DNA of 17,230 nucleotides from an uncultured Bacilli bacterium (GCA_949065595.1 CARSXK010000007.1:16539-33768), one strand, 5' to 3'; numbered from the stretch's first letter, positions 3,496 to 9,708 are shown. Notes: generated from the sequence alone by a model not told the origin. Numbers and translations: made by a program.

Positions 3496-3524
3496 TTAAA
3501 AGGCAGATATTATTTCAATCTGCC
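3496..3524 (-). terminator. Rho-independent terminator ending the DGR-target operon
   Basis: On the minus strand, GGCAGAT, a 9-nt loop and ATCTGCC (3524-3502) are followed by TTTTAAT. The hairpin overlaps the last codons and stop of the VWA gene. Confidence 0.6.
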
Positions 3525-4829
3525 CTTTGTAGATGGTACTTGTATAGAAAATAATCTTTCTAATTGCGATTCTGTTATTAAGATAACCTTTCCACAACAA
3601 GGATGAAAATTTGGATTTCCATAAACTAACCAAATAATATTTTCATTTTTCAAATCTTCTTTTGGCATATTACCAGGTCCAGGAATTCCATCTGTAAACA
3701 CAATTTTATTGATTTCTTTTTTTCTTGTAAAGGAACGAACGGCTAAATCCCAATCTTCTGTCTGTGCAGAACGTCCACGAGCTCCCGCAGGAATTTCAAA
3801 ATGATCAATGTCTGAATTCGCTTTCACTTCTACCATTCCCCAAAACTTTTCATTAAAACATCCTACTTTTAGTTTTGAGTGTTTCAATAAAGGTTTTAAC
3901 ATTCTTAAAAATGCTTTTACTAAATCTAAATCTACAGATCCTGACACATCAATTAATACTTCTGTTTCTGCTTCATCTTCTATATCATTTTCTTCTAATC
4001 GATAAGCGTAGTTATTTTCCGCAATTGAACGTCTTTGGCTCCAAATGGTCTCTGTTTTTTCTACCTCTTTTCGAACCAAAATTCTCCAATCTATTTCATG
4101 TTTACTTTGGCCAACTTCTCCCAAAGAAATTTTTTCTGATAAATTATCACCTATATTTTTAAGTACCTGCTCTTTGGCATGTTCTAAGTTTTCTTTTGCT
4201 TTTTGAATTCGTTCTTTTCTATTTTCCGAAAATTCTACACTTTCATCTATTTCTTCATATGAAAAATCGTTGGAATCAAATGAATCTTGTTGTTTTTCAA
4301 ATGCTTCTTCCCATAGACTATGATCATCACCTAAATGCTTTCCGTCTGTCTGTTCTCCTTTTTGATTATCATCTTTCTGTGATGTAGATTCTTGCGTATT
4401 CTTTTGTTGTTCCTTTTCCTTTAGTAAAATTTCATAAAATTCATTGGCAGAATAATGTAAAGCCTCTGGCCGATTGACATAACCTTCTTTTATATGAAAA
4501 CCATCACGCTTTAAATTAGCGTTTATAATCGCATCGGTTGCCTCATTCCATACATCCAAGTCTTTCTTCTCACCGTTTTTATCATTTAATCGAAAAACAT
4601 GGGCAAATTTAATATGCAAAAATTCATGTGCAACTAGAAAAATTCTGTCTTCCTCATTTAAGCTTGCAAAATACTCTGGATCCAAGTAGATTTCTTTTCC
4701 ATCTGTTGCAGCAGTATGATATTTTAAGTCAGATTTATAAGATATATGAGTTTGAGCAATCTCACTTCCAAGACGGGAATAACGGATTAATAGAAGTCTT
4801 TTGATATCAGATATTAAATGTTCATTCAT
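3510..4829 (-). CDS. VWA-like domain protein with an N-terminal putative Zn-metallopeptidase domain (DUF2201_N plus DUF2201/VWA architecture)
   Basis: The N-terminal part reads AATDGKEIYLDPEYF...VAHEFLHIKFAHVFR...WNEATDAIINANL (HExxH). The C-terminal part reads VLIDVSGSVDLDLVKAFL...GARGRS...IVFTDG (MIDAS-like DxSGS). I prefer the ATG at 4829, with AGGAG 8 nt upstream, to the TTG-type start at 4859. Confidence 0.8.
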   Translation of the reverse strand: MNEHLISDIKRLLLIRYSRLGSEIAQTHISYKSDLKYHTAATDGKEIYLDPEYFASLNEEDRIFLVAHEFLHIKFAHVFRLNDKNGEKKDLDVWNEATDAIINANLKRDGFHIKEGYVNRPEALHYSANEFYEILLKEKEQQKNTQESTSQKDDNQKGEQTDGKHLGDDHSLWEEAFEKQQDSFDSNDFSYEEIDESVEFSENRKERIQKAKENLEHAKEQVLKNIGDNLSEKISLGEVGQSKHEIDWRILVRKEVEKTETIWSQRRSIAENNYAYRLEENDIEDEAETEVLIDVSGSVDLDLVKAFLRMLKPLLKHSKLKVGCFNEKFWGMVEVKANSDIDHFEIPAGARGRSAQTEDWDLAVRSFTRKKEINKIVFTDGIPGPGNMPKEDLKNENIIWLVYGNPNFHPCCGKVILITESQLERLFSIQVPSTKGRLK

Positions 4830-4840
4830 ATGATAAACTC

Positions 4841-5224
4841 CTAAAATGCAACAACACAAAAGCGGTAAAGATCACTTACAATTTTTTGTACCGATGCTCT
4901 ATCTTTAACAGTAAATACAATAATTACATTAGAAGGTAGAAAATAACCACCCATTTCCCTATCTTTTACAAGTCCAACATAACGTTTCTGCAATTCTTCT
5001 GAAATTACATCAATTCCTCTAATCACAAAATATGTAATTTTTCCATTTTGAGCTAACAAATTCATTTTTTCTTTAAAAATAGGTTCAGAATAACAAAATA
5101 AATATGCACTGTCCATTCCAGCATCCATCACTAGTGTTTGTCCTAAATTTCTATACGCCTCATCTAAAATGACACAACAAGTTGCTTTACATCCTCTTTG
5201 TAACTCTATTAACGCCTTATTCAT
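4841..5224 (-). CDS. Hypothetical 127-aa protein, translationally coupled between the ATPase and VWA genes
   Basis: Its ATG overlaps the upstream TGA (ATGA at 5221-5224). Its stop at 4841-4843 overlaps the RBS of the VWA gene. No recognisable motif. Confidence 0.65.
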   Translation of the reverse strand: MNKALIELQRGCKATCCVILDEAYRNLGQTLVMDAGMDSAYLFCYSEPIFKEKMNLLAQNGKITYFVIRGIDVISEELQKRYVGLVKDREMGGYFLPSNVIIVFTVKDRASVQKIVSDLYRFCVVAF

Positions 5225-7134
5225 CTTCTCTTTCCAACTCCTTCACTTTGTGTAGTATGATAAGCCATAGCTAGTTCCTTCAATTCATTAATCTTTACCA
5301 TTTTATTTTCATCTGTACCAATCCAAAGCAAGTCATAAAGTTCCCGGTATTCTGGATCACAATATTGATTGATGAAAGTTCTACAGATTCCAACTTGGTT
5401 CTCATCAGCTAAAAGTAAAGAGATCATGCATGCGAATCGTTCATTGATATTTCTTGGTAAATCCGCCTGTGTATAAGTTTCCTTCACCACTTCTTCTACT
5501 GTAAGTGTAGGAATATTATAAAAGTTTAAAAATTCAGCTGCCCACCCCTCTCGGAGTTTTGTACCAATCGATATTTGCAATAAATTTTCTACGTTTTTTC
5601 CAATCAATTTTCCCGCGATTAAATCCTTTTCAAATGCATATAGTGTGTTGGAAATGGAAACCCAACCACGTGGATCATTGGTTCTACCATGACAATCATA
5701 TCGATCCAAATGTTTCTCACCAACTTCAGGTTCTTCATAGAAATAATCCATATTACAAATTTTTTCACTTCTACCTTTTTCTATATATTTTGAAGCAATA
5801 TACCCGATAACAGCAGGATGTACTTGGTTTGGAATTGCATATTCATAAATCCATTCTCCTACATGTGGTTCCATATCAAAAATATGATCAAATCTTTTTT
5901 CAAGCGGTTCTGCTACATCCTCTGCAACATTCGAATATTTCTTTTGGTTACCAGTGGCAACAATCACAGTATTCGCTGGCAATTTTAATCCCTTACCTGT
6001 TTCTACCAATCTATTTAATACCAAGGTATAAACCAAACATTGAACGGCAGGTTTTACATTCAATAATTCATCCAATAAAATGACAATTTTTTTAGTACTT
6101 GTCTTGGATCTTTCATAAATCGTATCCGCTATTTCATAAAGATTCTGTATATTGTCTTGTACCATTTTTCTTTCTGCATCAGTGGCACAAGACAAAAGTG
6201 CCTGTTTCGCAAAATCAGGAGGAATATTTTGACCTGTTTGGAAGTTCATAGATCCTACTACTTTTTCAGGAAGCATATTATTGGTTAACTTAATATAAAT
6301 TAAATCTGGATAAAGTGTTTTAATACGTTCTGTTTTTCCAATTCCAGAAGGTCCTCTTAAAAGAACAGATTGTCCAGCTTCAATCCAATTATGGATGATT
6401 TCAGTATCCGTCATGTTACGCCTTTCTGATGGAACGGTCGTATCAGGATTCAGTTTTTGCAATCTAGTTTCTCGCTTCAATCCTGATGTATTTATATTTA
6501 TGTTTTCAGATGACTTCGATAATCTTTGTATGGCTTCAAGTGCTTTTGCAAAACAGTTATCCAAATATTTTTTGATATCCGTTTGTTCAAAATTTCCTGT
6601 ATAATTACTGACATGATTGAATTGTACACCTGCAAACAATATTTTTTTTGCCACTACTTCATGCTTTTGTTCATCCACCAACCATTTGATTGGTTCAACT
6701 GCTATCCAATAAGGTTTATTTATTTGTACTTTGCTGCCATCTGATAAGGTTTCTCCCTTTGCATTTTTGTCACCCAAAAAGCGAATATATTTCTTACCCC
6801 TATATTCGTACGCAATATGATTTCGTTTTTGAAATTCTATATCATAATCACTGATATCAACAGAATCAGTTGGAAACTCGATATCTGTTTCCTTTAGTGT
6901 TTTTCTTTGATATTCCGTTTCTAATTGTGTTGCAATCGCACTTTCTACCACAGTTTGTGGCCATTCAAAGCACTCAACTTCAAAAACTCCACTAGCCCCT
7001 CTCACTTCGTTCGAGGAGATAGAAGAGATGGATGAGTATGGTAAAGCTGGACGCGCCCCAACATTGCGCGTTACTAACAGTGTTTTAGTAACTATTACCG
7101 TAACTGTCAACGACGCGCGCGTCATTATCCCCAT
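5221..7134 (-). CDS. AAA_5/MoxR-like ATPase; main body of the DGR target protein. The annotated first ~27 codons are an out-of-frame read of the VR.
   Basis: Walker A LLRGPSGIGKT (nt 6331-6354). Walker B VILLDELLNVKPAVQCLVYTLVLNR. Sensor-1-like TVIVATGNQ. Upstream of the ATPase lies NVGARPAL...FEWPQTVV...PIKWLVDEQ...IKKYLDNCF (a binding-module remnant). The ORF ends in TGA, which overlaps the next ATG. Confidence 0.8.
   Translation of the reverse strand: MGIMTRASLTVTVIVTKTLLVTRNVGARPALPYSSISSISSNEVRGASGVFEVECFEWPQTVVESAIATQLETEYQRKTLKETDIEFPTDSVDISDYDIEFQKRNHIAYEYRGKKYIRFLGDKNAKGETLSDGSKVQINKPYWIAVEPIKWLVDEQKHEVVAKKILFAGVQFNHVSNYTGNFEQTDIKKYLDNCFAKALEAIQRLSKSSENININTSGLKRETRLQKLNPDTTVPSERRNMTDTEIIHNWIEAGQSVLLRGPSGIGKTERIKTLYPDLIYIKLTNNMLPEKVVGSMNFQTGQNIPPDFAKQALLSCATDAERKMVQDNIQNLYEIADTIYERSKTSTKKIVILLDELLNVKPAVQCLVYTLVLNRLVETGKGLKLPANTVIVATGNQKKYSNVAEDVAEPLEKRFDHIFDMEPHVGEWIYEYAIPNQVHPAVIGYIASKYIEKGRSEKICNMDYFYEEPEVGEKHLDRYDCHGRTNDPRGWVSISNTLYAFEKDLIAGKLIGKNVENLLQISIGTKLREGWAAEFLNFYNIPTLTVEEVVKETYTQADLPRNINERFACMISLLLADENQVGICRTFINQYCDPEYRELYDLLWIGTDENKMVKINELKELAMAYHTTQSEGVGKRR
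7047..7121 (-). repeat. DGR variable repeat (VR)
   Basis: Aligns with 8640-8713. There are 9 substitutions (VR 7070, 7073, 7076, 7080, 7090, 7102, 7103, 7104, 7108), and every one lies where the TR has A on the minus (coding) strand. All C, G and T positions are identical. The VR has one extra nucleotide at about 7069. Confidence 0.88.
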
Positions 7135-7330
7135 CTGAAGTTCTAGTCCACCACAAACCAGTACGGTCTTTTAATGTCCTTCCTTCACTTGTATATATAT
7201 CATTTGCTACATAACCGCCTAATAAAATAGCAAAATCTGTAATAGCACATTTTGTTCCATATTGTTTAAAGATATCTAATTGTTTATCCCCAAATATTTC
7301 ATTTTGTTCTAAAAATGTAAAATCAAGCAT
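7085..7330 (-). CDS. N-terminal fragment of the DGR target (binding-module half carrying the 5' part of the VR), ended by a TR-templated TAA
   Basis: 81 aa. RBS GGTGGTGA lies 7 nt before the ATG. FTFLEQNEIF...KCAITDFAILLGGYV...GLWWTRTSDGDNDARVVDSYGNSY*. TR codons in this frame are rich in AAC and AAT (AAC AAA AAC GGT AAT AGT AAC TAA AAC AAT), as expected for the true VR reading frame. Confidence 0.7.
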   Translation of the reverse strand: MLDFTFLEQNEIFGDKQLDIFKQYGTKCAITDFAILLGGYVANDIYTSEGRTLKDRTGLWWTRTSDGDNDARVVDSYGNSY

Positions 7331-7392
7331 AGTTAATCACCACCTATATCATAACATAATTTTGCTAATTGTAGACATTTTTTTACAATTTT

Positions 7393-8412
7393 TTAACGAT
7401 TTAACAATATATCTTTCCATTTCGAACAATCACTTGTCTTTTTAATATGATTATAAAATGCATTTTTTCGTACCAACACATAAGTATCATCAACCACACC
7501 CTTACGATATAACTTACCCAATGTTTTTAAATGTTTCTTCATTCTTTGTTTAGAAGAATATCTTAATTTCATGATAATTCTCCCACTAGAACTTACAATA
7601 TGACGATATCCTAAAAAATCAATTCCATTTTTTACCATACCAATTTGTGTTTTTTGATTGAGCTGTAAATCTAAAACAGTATTACATAATCTATTTATTT
7701 CATTTTTACAATGTGATAAAAACTTTTTATCTCTATGGATTAGTATCATATCATCCATATACCTTACATAATGTTTTACTTGCAATACCTCTTTGATATA
7801 ACGATCTACTACATTCAAGTAAAAAAGCGCAAACCATTGACTCGATTGATTTCCAAGCGGTAGTCCTCTATCTGCATAATCTGGCTGTTCCTGAACTAAT
7901 TTTCGGATCAACCACATTTCATCTTCAGAAAAATCAATTTTTTCTAATAAATGAATTAAAATATCATGATGGATACTCGGAAAATATTTATGAATATCAC
8001 ATTTTAAAAAATAAATATGATTGTTATTTTCCTTGCGATATTCTTTTCTTAAAAATTGATGTAAGCGATTGATTGCAAATGTAGTACCTTTTCCCTTTCG
8101 GCAAGCACAGTTATCATAGATCAGTTTCTTTTCTATGTTTGGTTTTAAACAAACATCACAAAAACATCTAATGACTACTCTATCTTTAAAAGGTAAAGCT
8201 TCTATTAATCGTTCTTTTGGTTCATAAATATAAAATTTTTTGTATGATCCTAACTGGTATTGTTTAGTCCAAAGCGCATTCATTAAACGATATAAATTGA
8301 TGGCTAAATCAGTTTCAAAACGAATGACCTCACCTTTATGTTGTTTTGATTTACGACAATTTTTATATGCCGTATATAAATTTTCAAACGTAAAGATTTC
8401 CTCTATTTGCAT
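7393..8412 (-). CDS. DGR-type reverse transcriptase
   Basis: 339 aa. Motifs in Bordetella bRT order: FENLYTAYKNCRKSK, YEPKERLIEALPFKDRVV, CACRKGKGT, FLKCDIHKYFPSI, GLPLGNQSSQWFALFYLNVVDRYIKE (the DGR-specific GxxxSQ motif), VRYMDDMILI, GIDFLGYR. GAGGAG lies 7 nt upstream of the ATG. Confidence 0.93.
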   Translation of the reverse strand: MQIEEIFTFENLYTAYKNCRKSKQHKGEVIRFETDLAINLYRLMNALWTKQYQLGSYKKFYIYEPKERLIEALPFKDRVVIRCFCDVCLKPNIEKKLIYDNCACRKGKGTTFAINRLHQFLRKEYRKENNNHIYFLKCDIHKYFPSIHHDILIHLLEKIDFSEDEMWLIRKLVQEQPDYADRGLPLGNQSSQWFALFYLNVVDRYIKEVLQVKHYVRYMDDMILIHRDKKFLSHCKNEINRLCNTVLDLQLNQKTQIGMVKNGIDFLGYRHIVSSSGRIIMKLRYSSKQRMKKHLKTLGKLYRKGVVDDTYVLVRKNAFYNHIKKTSDCSKWKDILLNR

Positions 8413-8639
8413 ACGTTACTCCTCTCAAAAAAAAGAAACACCCCTGATAACGCCCAAAGAATGATTCCATTCGTTGTTTGTGTGAGTGTTCATGTATTTT
8501 TCCATCGCACTAAGAATTCTCTTTTAGCGGTTAGAAAAGAAGAAAATTCCTTCACCTTACAATACGGACCTATTTTACATAAAATAAATTTCTCTGATCT
8601 GTTTTCTAGATTTGATTTCAAATCTCTTCAAAAGTGAAT
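8413..8639 (-). ncRNA. Untranslated spacer between TR and RT (probable Sp part of the DGR RNA)
   Basis: 227 nt with no credible same-strand ORF, lying between the 3' end of the TR and the RT ATG. It contains the hairpin AGATTTG-ATTT-CAAATCT (8608-8625), 15 nt beyond the end of the TR. The role is inferred by analogy with the Bordetella TR-Sp RNA. Confidence 0.4.
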
Positions 8640-8713
8640 CTGGACGCGCCCCAACATTGCGTTTTCTTACATTGTTTTAGTTACTATTACCGTTTTTGTT
8701 AACGACGCGCGCG
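8640..8713 (-). repeat. DGR template repeat (TR)
   Basis: Non-coding copy located between avd and RT. Minus-strand sequence: CGCGCGCGTCGTTAACAAAAACGGTAATAGTAACTAAAACAATGTAAGAAAACGCAATGTTGGGGCGCGTCCAG. It carries A at all 9 positions that differ from the VR. Confidence 0.88.
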
Positions 8714-8791
8714 AGCACACCAAAAGGGGCAAGAACAAAAACGCACAACTAAAAATTTTCTCCTTAATTAAAGATTTTTCAATCTAAAATC

Positions 8792-9376
8792 CTAATTTCT
8801 TTTACGCCATCTTTCATCATCACTCTTTTTCCAAGCAACAATTAAATTGATGGCTTCTGCTAATTGAATGGATATTTGCTTATATTGCTTTTTTAAAATA
8901 CAATTAGAGTCTTCCGCAATCATCGCAACATACCCTAAAAGTTTTAACTTTACAATTGCTTCTTTTTGAAGCTGTTCTCGGCTTATTTTATTGGTTCCAG
9001 AGTCCATTCGAATCAAATTAGCTTCCAACAACAATTCTAATGTATCTAAACAATAATTCTGCATTCTATTCACAAATACGCCTCTAAACTTTTTAGGGGA
9101 TTTTTCCGTCACCGCAATTACATAAGCACCCAACTTCTTTACAACCGTAATTACCATTAGATCATTTGCATTGAACGGAATCTTGGAAATTCTTTCCAAT
9201 TCCTGATCTTCTATTTCTAATTTTTCTCTTAAAGTATTTATATTTATTTTTTGTTCATTTACACGGGCAAGCGCTTTTTTGATTGCAATGGCATCATCTA
9301 TACTATTTGCACTTGTTTCATATTGTTCTACTTGCTTTGGTATTTTTAAACTACCATTTCTATTTACCTGCAGCAC
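8792..9376 (-). CDS. avd: Avd-like accessory variability determinant (four-helix-bundle protein) with an N-terminal extension
   Basis: The C-terminal ~120 aa (KSPKKFRGVFVNRMQNYCLDTLELLLEAN...ILKKQYKQISIQLAEAINLIVAWKKSDDERWRKRN) fit the Avd/four-helix-bundle pattern, including the basic tail. The position immediately 5' of the TR also fits. The probable start is GTG at 9376, with AGGAG 10 nt upstream. Confidence 0.72.
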   Translation of the reverse strand: MLQVNRNGSLKIPKQVEQYETSANSIDDAIAIKKALARVNEQKININTLREKLEIEDQELERISKIPFNANDLMVITVVKKLGAYVIAVTEKSPKKFRGVFVNRMQNYCLDTLELLLEANLIRMDSGTNKISREQLQKEAIVKLKLLGYVAMIAEDSNCILKKQYKQISIQLAEAINLIVAWKKSDDERWRKRN

Positions 9377-9632: not shown

Positions 9633-9708
9633 TGGTGTTCCCGACAGGACTCGAACCCGTATCGGTCCCTTAGGAGGGGACTGCTCTATCCTGCTGAGCT
9701 ACGAGAAC
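9633..9708 (-). tRNA. tRNA-Arg (anticodon CCT), CCA encoded
   Basis: Minus strand: GTTCTCGTAGCTCAGCAGGATAGAGCAGTCCCCTCCTAAGGGACCGATACGGGTTCGAGTCCTGTCGGGAACACCA. The 7-bp acceptor stem, D arm GCTC/GAGC, anticodon stem GTCCC/GGGAC with loop CTCCTAA, and T loop TTCGAGT all fold as a cloverleaf. Confidence 0.9.

Follow-up and report, generated by a model that had tools for sequence, protein, structure and literature searches.

A diversity-generating retroelement with an in-frame stop codon in its template repeat, from an uncultured mouse-gut bacterium

A 17,230-nucleotide stretch of DNA from an uncultured Bacilli bacterium (GCA_949065595.1, CARSXK010000007.1:16539-33768; hereafter the window) carries on its minus strand a diversity-generating retroelement (DGR), arranged in the order avd, template repeat (TR), structured spacer, reverse transcriptase (RT) and target gene, with the variable repeat (VR) lying in the target (Table 1). 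DGRs are textbook targeted-hypermutation machines; their prototype is the DGR of Bordetella phage BPP-1, in which an avd-TR-brt cassette diversifies mtd. In the window the TR carries a stop codon in the frame of the target, and the target itself is interrupted.

Table 1. Coordinates of the retroelement, its target and neighboring features in the window.
Feature	Position	Strand	Remarks
Template repeat (TR)	8713..8640	-	74 nt, 27 adenines
Variable repeat (VR)	7121..7047	-	75 nt; 9 A-to-N substitutions and 1 additional nt relative to TR
Insertion site (+1)	7069..7073	-	exact base ambiguous, three equally good alignments
In-frame TAA in TR (variable site 8)	8677..8679	-	frame set by the flanks DNDARVV and GARPAL
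TAA stop in VR	7085..7087	-	unmutated copy from TR, truncates target
Target, 5' part (81-aa open reading frame)	7085..7330	-	conserved start MLDFTFLEQNEIFG, ribosome-binding site GGTGGTGA; ends at the TAA in VR
Target, remainder (frame of the 637-aa open reading frame)	5221..7046	-	GARPALPYSSISSISS linker, second beta-rich module (EPIKWLVDE), AAA_5 ATPase
DGR reverse transcriptase	7393..8412	-	339 aa; LGNQSSQ, YMDD, RVT_1, phrog_1423
Structured TR-RT spacer	8413..8639	-	227 nt; covariation across 16 relatives
Avd-like accessory gene	8792..9376	-	194-aa open reading frame, GTG start; phrog_3206, bAvd, DivGenRetAVD
127-aa open reading frame	4841..5224	-	overlaps the ATPase gene stop; no family match; conserved in conspecific loci
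DUF2201_N putative metallopeptidase-domain protein	3510..4859	-	449 aa; PF13203 5.8e-20, phrog_1314 5e-41
tRNA-Arg(CCT)	9633..9708	-	directly upstream of avd; marks island edge

The RT contains both LGNQSSQ, a motif of the [I/L]GxxxSQ type, and YMDD, as an earlier reading of the window made without database searches (the sequence-only reading) had recognized, and it matches RVT_1 as well as phrog_1423 at 1e-101. It is 34% identical to brt of BPP-1 (E 2e-36). The closest solved structure is 8ub7_A, a 328-aa reverse transcriptase (E 1.3e-37), against 9e-8 for group II RTs and 3e-7 for retron-type RTs. We take 8ub7 to be brt itself, from its length and the parallel match to BPP-1; a literature search on the code 8UB7 returned nothing. 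Judged by these comparisons the RT is of the DGR type, far nearer to brt/8ub7 than to group II or retron RTs.

Immediately 5' of the TR lies the Avd-like gene that the same reading had placed there, and its product matches phrog_3206, "Avd protein of DGR", at 4.5e-16. Both the bAvd and the DivGenRetAVD profiles are covered over their full length; the matching part comprises residues ~70-192, and the N-terminal ~70 aa lie outside the Avd profiles. No PDB entry was matched by sequence. Translation from an internal ATG (MVITVV...) would yield ~121 aa, nearer to the Avd profile length than the product of the GTG start at 9376. The spacer between TR and RT folds, across the 16 relatives aligned, into seven helices with 51 pairs, and 96.4% of the cells are paired. 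Compensatory changes occur at 19 of these pairs, compared with 8.5 in shuffled alignments (none of 500 reached 19) and 3-7 in slid controls. The spacer is probably the portion of the DGR RNA that does not serve as template. An Rfam scan of the window returned tRNA only, with no DGR, group II intron or retron RNA and no family for the spacer.

TR and VR, which flank the RT where the sequence-only reading had set them, both begin with CGCGCGCGTCGTT and finish with GGGGCGCGTCCAG. They differ by nine substitutions, at each of which the TR has A and the VR has G, T or C; with 27 adenines among 74 nt, nine of nine at A would arise by chance with P ~1e-4. The earlier count of 24 TR adenines within 8662-8700 was correct, as was the direction of all nine substitutions. 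Its statement that no C, G or T position differs holds for substitutions alone, because the VR also has a 1-nt insertion inside a TR adenine run (TR AAGAAAACGC, VR AGTAACGCGC) that had been missed and that shifts the frame between the VR TAA and GARPAL. The variable tract, formerly placed at 8662-8700, extends to 8657, since both adenines of CAATG vary in other alleles. The GC-rich 3' end GGGGCGCGTCCAG is identical in the two repeats and is followed by a diverging junction, CCAG continuing with ATTCAC after the TR and with CTTTAC after the VR.

The sequence-only reading had the VR inside a coding region. It does not lie within a single intact open reading frame (ORF), and it spans the stop of the 81-aa ORF and the start of a 637-aa ORF (7134..5221, minus strand) in another frame. 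When the two ORFs were joined through the stop and the frameshift and a protein collection was searched with the reconstructed fusion, more than 250 homologs were recovered, many of them intact with 100% coverage and 45-56% identity. Intact homologs run unbroken from ARVV through 16 aa to GARPALPYSSISSISSN and on to the second module (EPIKWLVDE), reaching AAA_5 in several. Because they are colinear across the junction, the window target is a null allele of one fused gene, and it is annotated as two ORFs because its VR retained the TAA and gained the +1 insertion. The description of the DGR as complete is therefore right for the machinery (avd, TR, spacer RNA, RT and VR) and wrong for the target gene.

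By sequence comparison, the target has a DUF6273-like variable module at its N-terminus, followed by a second beta-rich module and an ATPase, called MoxR-like from the AAA_5 profile alone (23.9 bits against a cut-off of 22, at ~5890-6366, residues 257-415 of the 637-aa ORF); the ATPase also matches phrog_1297 at 1e-31. DUF6273 (PF19789) matches the reconstructed protein at 20.6 bits (E 4e-4), under the gathering threshold of 23.5, with residues 53-97 aligned to profile positions 124-168, the last 45, across both stop and frameshift. The domain is found at E <= 0.01 in 18 of 68 homologs (best 2e-5), and a precomputed PF19789 match accompanies 9 of 120 listed homologs. An AlphaFold model of the homolog P0005 (pLDDT 89.7, pTM 0.84) had no significant Foldseek or sequence-profile match in PDB or BFVD. 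Inspection of the sequence revealed neither a signal peptide nor a hydrophobic N-terminus in the target.

Gene callers split the locus in the same way in every conspecific assembly, and the 81-aa ORF has a good ribosome-binding site and a conserved start. It might accordingly be a complete target whose C-terminal tail is diversified; the VR would then be non-coding in its distal half, and the ATPase would start independently downstream, for example at the GTG of a 594-aa version. We consider this most improbable: intact homologs continue without a break across the VR to GARPALPYSSISSISSN and as far as the ATPase, the TR keeps one frame between ARVV and GARP, all relatives conserve the protein sequence of the 45-codon linker that precedes the GTG, the DUF6273 match draws on residues on either side of the stop, and inspection found no ribosome-binding site before the GTG.

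Since the conserved flanks fix the reading frame, the TR templates an in-frame TAA: read in the frame of the target it encodes ARVVNKNGNSN, a stop codon and then NNVRKRNVGARP. Reassignment of TAA was ruled out, as it is the commonest stop in the window and ends 9 of 15 ordinary ORFs, including that of the RT. Programmed read-through or frameshifting was set aside as well, since the place and manner of the frame break vary among alleles.

Conspecific contigs from mouse-gut samples were identified by exact-match look-ups of the RT, Avd and the 127-aa neighbor; the organism is present in the samples SRR26844560/61, ERR3957882, ERR3957834, SRR14619883 and ERZ941149. Among assemblies with a 100% identical RT there are at least six VR alleles, of 73, 74 and 75 nt, and the TR is identical in every conspecific locus that includes it. 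In the five complete alleles all 53 substitutions fall at TR adenines (chance ~6e-24), comprising 25 A to T, 20 A to G and 8 A to C changes, and each allele is changed at ~39% of TR adenines. Over 15.6 kb, assembly L001 differs from the window by one single-nucleotide polymorphism outside the VR and by 14 differences within 7064-7103. These data support the sequence-only reading on recent mutagenic retrohoming, and its expectation that VR differences between related strains would keep to TR adenines held for the substitutions in the five complete conspecific alleles. We conclude that the locus is a genuine, recently active DGR in an uncultured mouse-gut bacterium.

Two further accounts of the repeats were considered. 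One, that a retron, group II intron or defense-associated RT happens to lie between chance repeats, could draw on the best NCBIfam match of the RT, group_II_RT_mat, whose score of 95 bits nevertheless falls short of the 300-bit cut-off, and on generic matches to defense-associated RTs (DRT) in PADLOC. It is refuted by the proximity of the RT to brt/8ub7, the GxxxSQ motif, the Avd neighbor, the adenine specificity of 53 of 53 differences, the allelic series and the Rfam result, and we give it practically no weight. The other is that the indels, and perhaps the stops, are metagenome assembly artifacts at a hypervariable region and the true alleles are in frame. Conspecific assemblies do fail exactly at the VR: L095 (L095:1-41) begins inside it and L090 carries a run of N there, which fits several VR haplotypes per sample and shows populations that are mixed and hard to assemble. 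The 75-nt window allele, on the other hand, recurs unchanged in L002, L004 and L007, assembled from different samples, and its insertion is therefore no assembly error; the TR, which is invariant and assembles easily, has the TAA too, and indels beside adenine runs are documented in 7% of curated DGRs (PMC5758913). Artifact is thus a very improbable source of the broken frames.

The templated stop is not confined to the window species. Eighty RT relatives were fetched from species-representative genomes, all of them metagenome-assembled genomes (MAGs) of gut or rumen Bacilli and Clostridia, and 55 of the 80 have adenine-biased TR/VR pairs, 40 with the VR downstream of the RT as in the window and 15 in the classical layout. 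In-frame TR stops occur in 18 of the 40 same-layout relatives and in none of the 15 with the classical layout (Fisher p = 0.001); the VR currently contains a stop in 15 of the 40. Four relatives whose RTs share 74-81% identity with that of the window, L008, L009, L010 and L023, have TAA at the same TR site as the window. Their VR codons there are TAG, TAA, TTA and TAA, and TTT is also recorded in these lineages. All of these start with T, so homing went on after the TAA arose. At a second site (N-stop-NG) the TR has TAA in seven other lineages, and TGA and TAG also occur. In a rough neighbor-joining tree the window and L008-L010 form one clade, and the second stop site is scattered over deeper branches. 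In 93 intact homologs the residue at the TAA site of the window is W in 44, Y in 15, C in 14, S in 6 and L in 2, mostly from TNN codons.

A metagenome scan for the VR 3' flank gave no match, and 33 loci were returned by a scan for the TR/spacer junction, only seven of them being real TRs. Two of these seven, on metagenome contigs (L125:1-78 and L137:6700-6787), have TAA at a third position (ARVVDNNGYNNRK, stop, SNKRNGGARP). Gaps between TR and VR are present in 14 of the 40 same-layout relatives. L043 has +1 followed by -1, L040 a 6-nt deletion and L050 a 3-nt insertion; being compensating or in-frame, such indels also diversify the length and sequence of alleles with an open frame (ON alleles).

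Avoidance of nonsense in TR codons has been stated as a rule (PMC10907252; PMC4372165; bioRxiv 2024.11.15.621889), and a TR with a nonsense codon departs from this codon property, which is typical of DGRs and not defining. It is often repeated of DGRs that their template codons are laid out such that mutation of adenines produces no stop. A literature search of limited extent found no report of templated stops in DGRs. What stands out at this locus is that the template encodes a stop, that such stops are widespread in the family and that every sampled allele of the window species is null; the DGR itself is ordinary.

Our explanation of the locus as a whole, to which we assign a probability of roughly 0.85, is that of a chromosomal minus-strand DGR in the order avd, TR, structured spacer RNA, RT and target, whose template carries a TAA and whose target is null in the window, and which would act as both diversifier and toggle. 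By analogy with the BPP-1 paradigm, RT and Avd would copy the TR-spacer RNA into cDNA with misincorporation opposite template adenines, and the cDNA would then replace the VR. In simulations at the observed change rate about one third of retrohoming events would yield an open frame (probability ~0.35 for a template with TAA, ~0.81 for one with TGG at that codon). The element would both diversify the module and switch the fused sensor-ATPase between OFF and many ON states.

Several observations weigh against this explanation or parts of it. The Avd-like ORF scores under the curated cut-offs of Pfam bAvd (24.7 bits) and NCBIfam DivGenRetAVD (29.2 bits). The 86 nt tested, made up of the VR 3' end and the next 72 nt, held no stable hairpin (z = +1.5). 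The neighbors showed no vWA domain (no VWA or PF09967 match at E <= 1), and PADLOC assigned no defense system, returning generic RT/DRT matches and a weak DolB match. None of six independent alleles of the window species has an open frame, and 1-nt indels are present in three of the five complete conspecific alleles. This looks like unselected RT output, with which zero of six is compatible given the simulated open-frame probability of ~0.35, and a decaying target would fit equally well; the shortage of ON alleles is itself not significant (P ~0.08). In L024, L038 and L050, finally, TR and VR disagree at the first base of the TAA, as if the TR had mutated after the last homing, which suggests that some TR stops are recent mutations and not maintained features.

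The null alleles, the indels and the differences in L024, L038 and L050 would also fit a decaying system, with working DGR machinery, a target that has become a pseudogene, a TR TAA that is an unpurged deleterious mutation and no selection for an open frame. More than half of candidate DGRs were discarded as inactivated, for example by premature stops, in one survey (Wu et al., 2018, PMC5758913). We take decay seriously while thinking it unlikely. The same-codon TAA is shared by the TRs of L008, L009, L010 and L023 despite the divergence of their RTs, with homing continuing since; RT and avd are intact; and TR stops lie at several sites across the 18 relatives that have them. Starting at GARPAL, all 24 relatives in which the frame could be placed have 530-660 aa of open frame, and in nine of them the VR is at present interrupted by a stop or frameshift. 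Measured between the window and L008 and L009, all of them OFF, dN/dS (the ratio of nonsynonymous to synonymous divergence) is 0.17 overall and 0.11 in the ATPase, and the downstream ATPase frame is under purifying selection. ON alleles are known in sister lineages with a TAA template, where the VR codon is TTA (L010), TGC (L025) or TGG (L027). The homolog search with the reconstructed fusion omitted the window species' own 81-aa and 637-aa proteins, both of which are in the collection; the absence of a close full-length ON protein there is therefore no evidence. Our reading of these sequence comparisons is that the gene has been maintained over evolutionary time and that individual lineages are often OFF.

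A stronger version of the toggle, which we put forward tentatively and think rather improbable, is that the templated stop is a selected design feature of the whole DGR family, a phase-variation switch combined with a diversifier in which the outcome of each homing event is a null allele or a new full-length variant. Most cells would then be OFF, sparing cost or self-reactivity, and the TNN codon would open Trp, Tyr, Phe and Cys at the site, Trp not being encodable from AAC codons. If the stop is functional, DGRs would also be stochastic ON/OFF switches, and pipelines that filter for intact targets would miss them systematically. If it is tolerated decay, the locus would still document cleanly what a DGR produces without selection, from the spectrum of substitutions to the rate of indels. 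A gut and rumen DGR family with intact, active machinery and a target under purifying selection breaks the no-nonsense rule in almost half of its members.

The window DGR resembles that of BPP-1 in an RT 34% identical to brt, an Avd-like accessory protein, the structured RNA between TR and RT, TR codons rich in AAC and AAT, adenine-specific TR-to-VR differences, and the GC-rich identical repeat 3' end with its diverging junction. In BPP-1 the target precedes the RT, has its VR at the 3' end and is a tail-fiber protein gene; in the window the target follows the RT, has its VR close to the 5' end of a long gene and encodes a cytoplasmic ATPase fusion. The window DGR further differs in that no hairpin was detected past the VR and the TR holds an in-frame stop. 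The RT type, the adenine-confined substitutions, the Avd neighbor and a hypervariable VR beside an invariant TR place the element among the DGRs. Four of its features depart from typical DGRs: the downstream target, the 5'-proximal VR, the cytoplasmic ATPase fusion and the template nonsense codon. The 1-nt indels in TR adenine runs have a counterpart in the non-canonical mutagenesis of ~7% of curated DGRs (PMC5758913) and differ from it in being much more frequent (three of five conspecific alleles; 14 of 40 relatives with gaps) and in occurring alongside templated stops.

Within the target, the VR lies at the C-terminal end of the DUF6273-like unit (profile positions ~125-168 of 172), as in the DUF6273 targets of gut phages (tentaclins, PMC10743442; Faecalibacterium prophages, PMC11792537), and the unit is N-terminal as in tentaclins (PMC10743442). 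The VR region maps to the predicted strands 70-74 and 80-84 of the AlphaFold model, consistent with the VR beta-hairpin of tentaclins.

Published NTPase conflict systems diversified by DGRs include ternary MoxR-vWA (VMAP/iSTAND) systems that have FGS/C-lec effectors (Kaur et al., 2020, PMC7159879; Dore et al., 2024, PMC10907252); C-lec-AAA ATPase DGR targets in CPR (candidate phyla radiation) and DPANN organisms are cited there. The window shares with MoxR-vWA systems a DGR-variable recognition module coupled to a MoxR-like AAA+ ATPase and a cytoplasmic set of proteins. Unlike in those systems, the variable module is N-terminal on the ATPase, the published FGS domain being C-terminal and usually on the vWA component; neither a vWA partner nor a third, VMAP/iSTAND component was detected in the window with general profiles, a VMAP-specific profile not being among them. 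The MoxR-vWA papers stress nonsense-free TR codons, a rule that the window DGR family violates, and the hosts here, unicellular-looking gut Bacilli and Clostridia known from MAGs, are unlike the published ones. The module, the ATPase and the DUF2201_N protein, a probable partner of the ATPase, probably form an intracellular NTPase-based recognition or conflict system. The locus adds a Firmicutes gut case of a DGR-variable module fused N-terminally to a MoxR-like ATPase and extends the theme of a hypervariable sensor plus NTPase past multicellular cyanobacteria and proteobacteria.

The cassette and the ATPase, 127-aa and DUF2201_N genes lie between tRNA-Arg(CCT) and TfoX_N, DUF1848 and EamA genes, and the flanks hold housekeeping genes (ProRS, LspA, RluD and rhomboid). 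The locus may be a small tRNA-adjacent island. No phage genes are present in the flanks and there is no sign of a prophage, because DNA similarity to phages is limited to an 88-nt match in the RT. Neither the 127-aa nor a 182-aa neighbor matched a family.

In relatives of the window the variable module stays constant and its C-terminal partner is exchanged (homologs P0019, P0021, P0023, P0026 and P0070; loci L010, L011, L023 and L028). The partners comprise the AAA_5 type of the window, a second ATPase type (~32% identical), ankyrin repeats and a VWA-like domain, PF09967, to which P0026 fuses the module; forms without a partner are stand-alone proteins of ~300 aa. In the linker at 6912-7046 (minus strand), the 45 codons past the VR, synonymous divergence (dS) relative to L008 and L009 is ~0.4, compared with 1.2 in the remaining gene, a tentative sign that the DNA or RNA is itself constrained, perhaps for target recognition. 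On a 75.7-kb bovine metagenome contig (L139:8142-19657), ~10 tandem paralogs of ~307 aa contain the variable and second modules without the ATPase and adjoin a separate AAA_5 gene and ankyrin-repeat genes; no RT was found within the 21 kb examined. In at least four of the copies, probably six, there are VR-like segments whose GC-rich flanks are nearly identical and whose variable codons fall at matching positions, and the array is probably a multi-target DGR.

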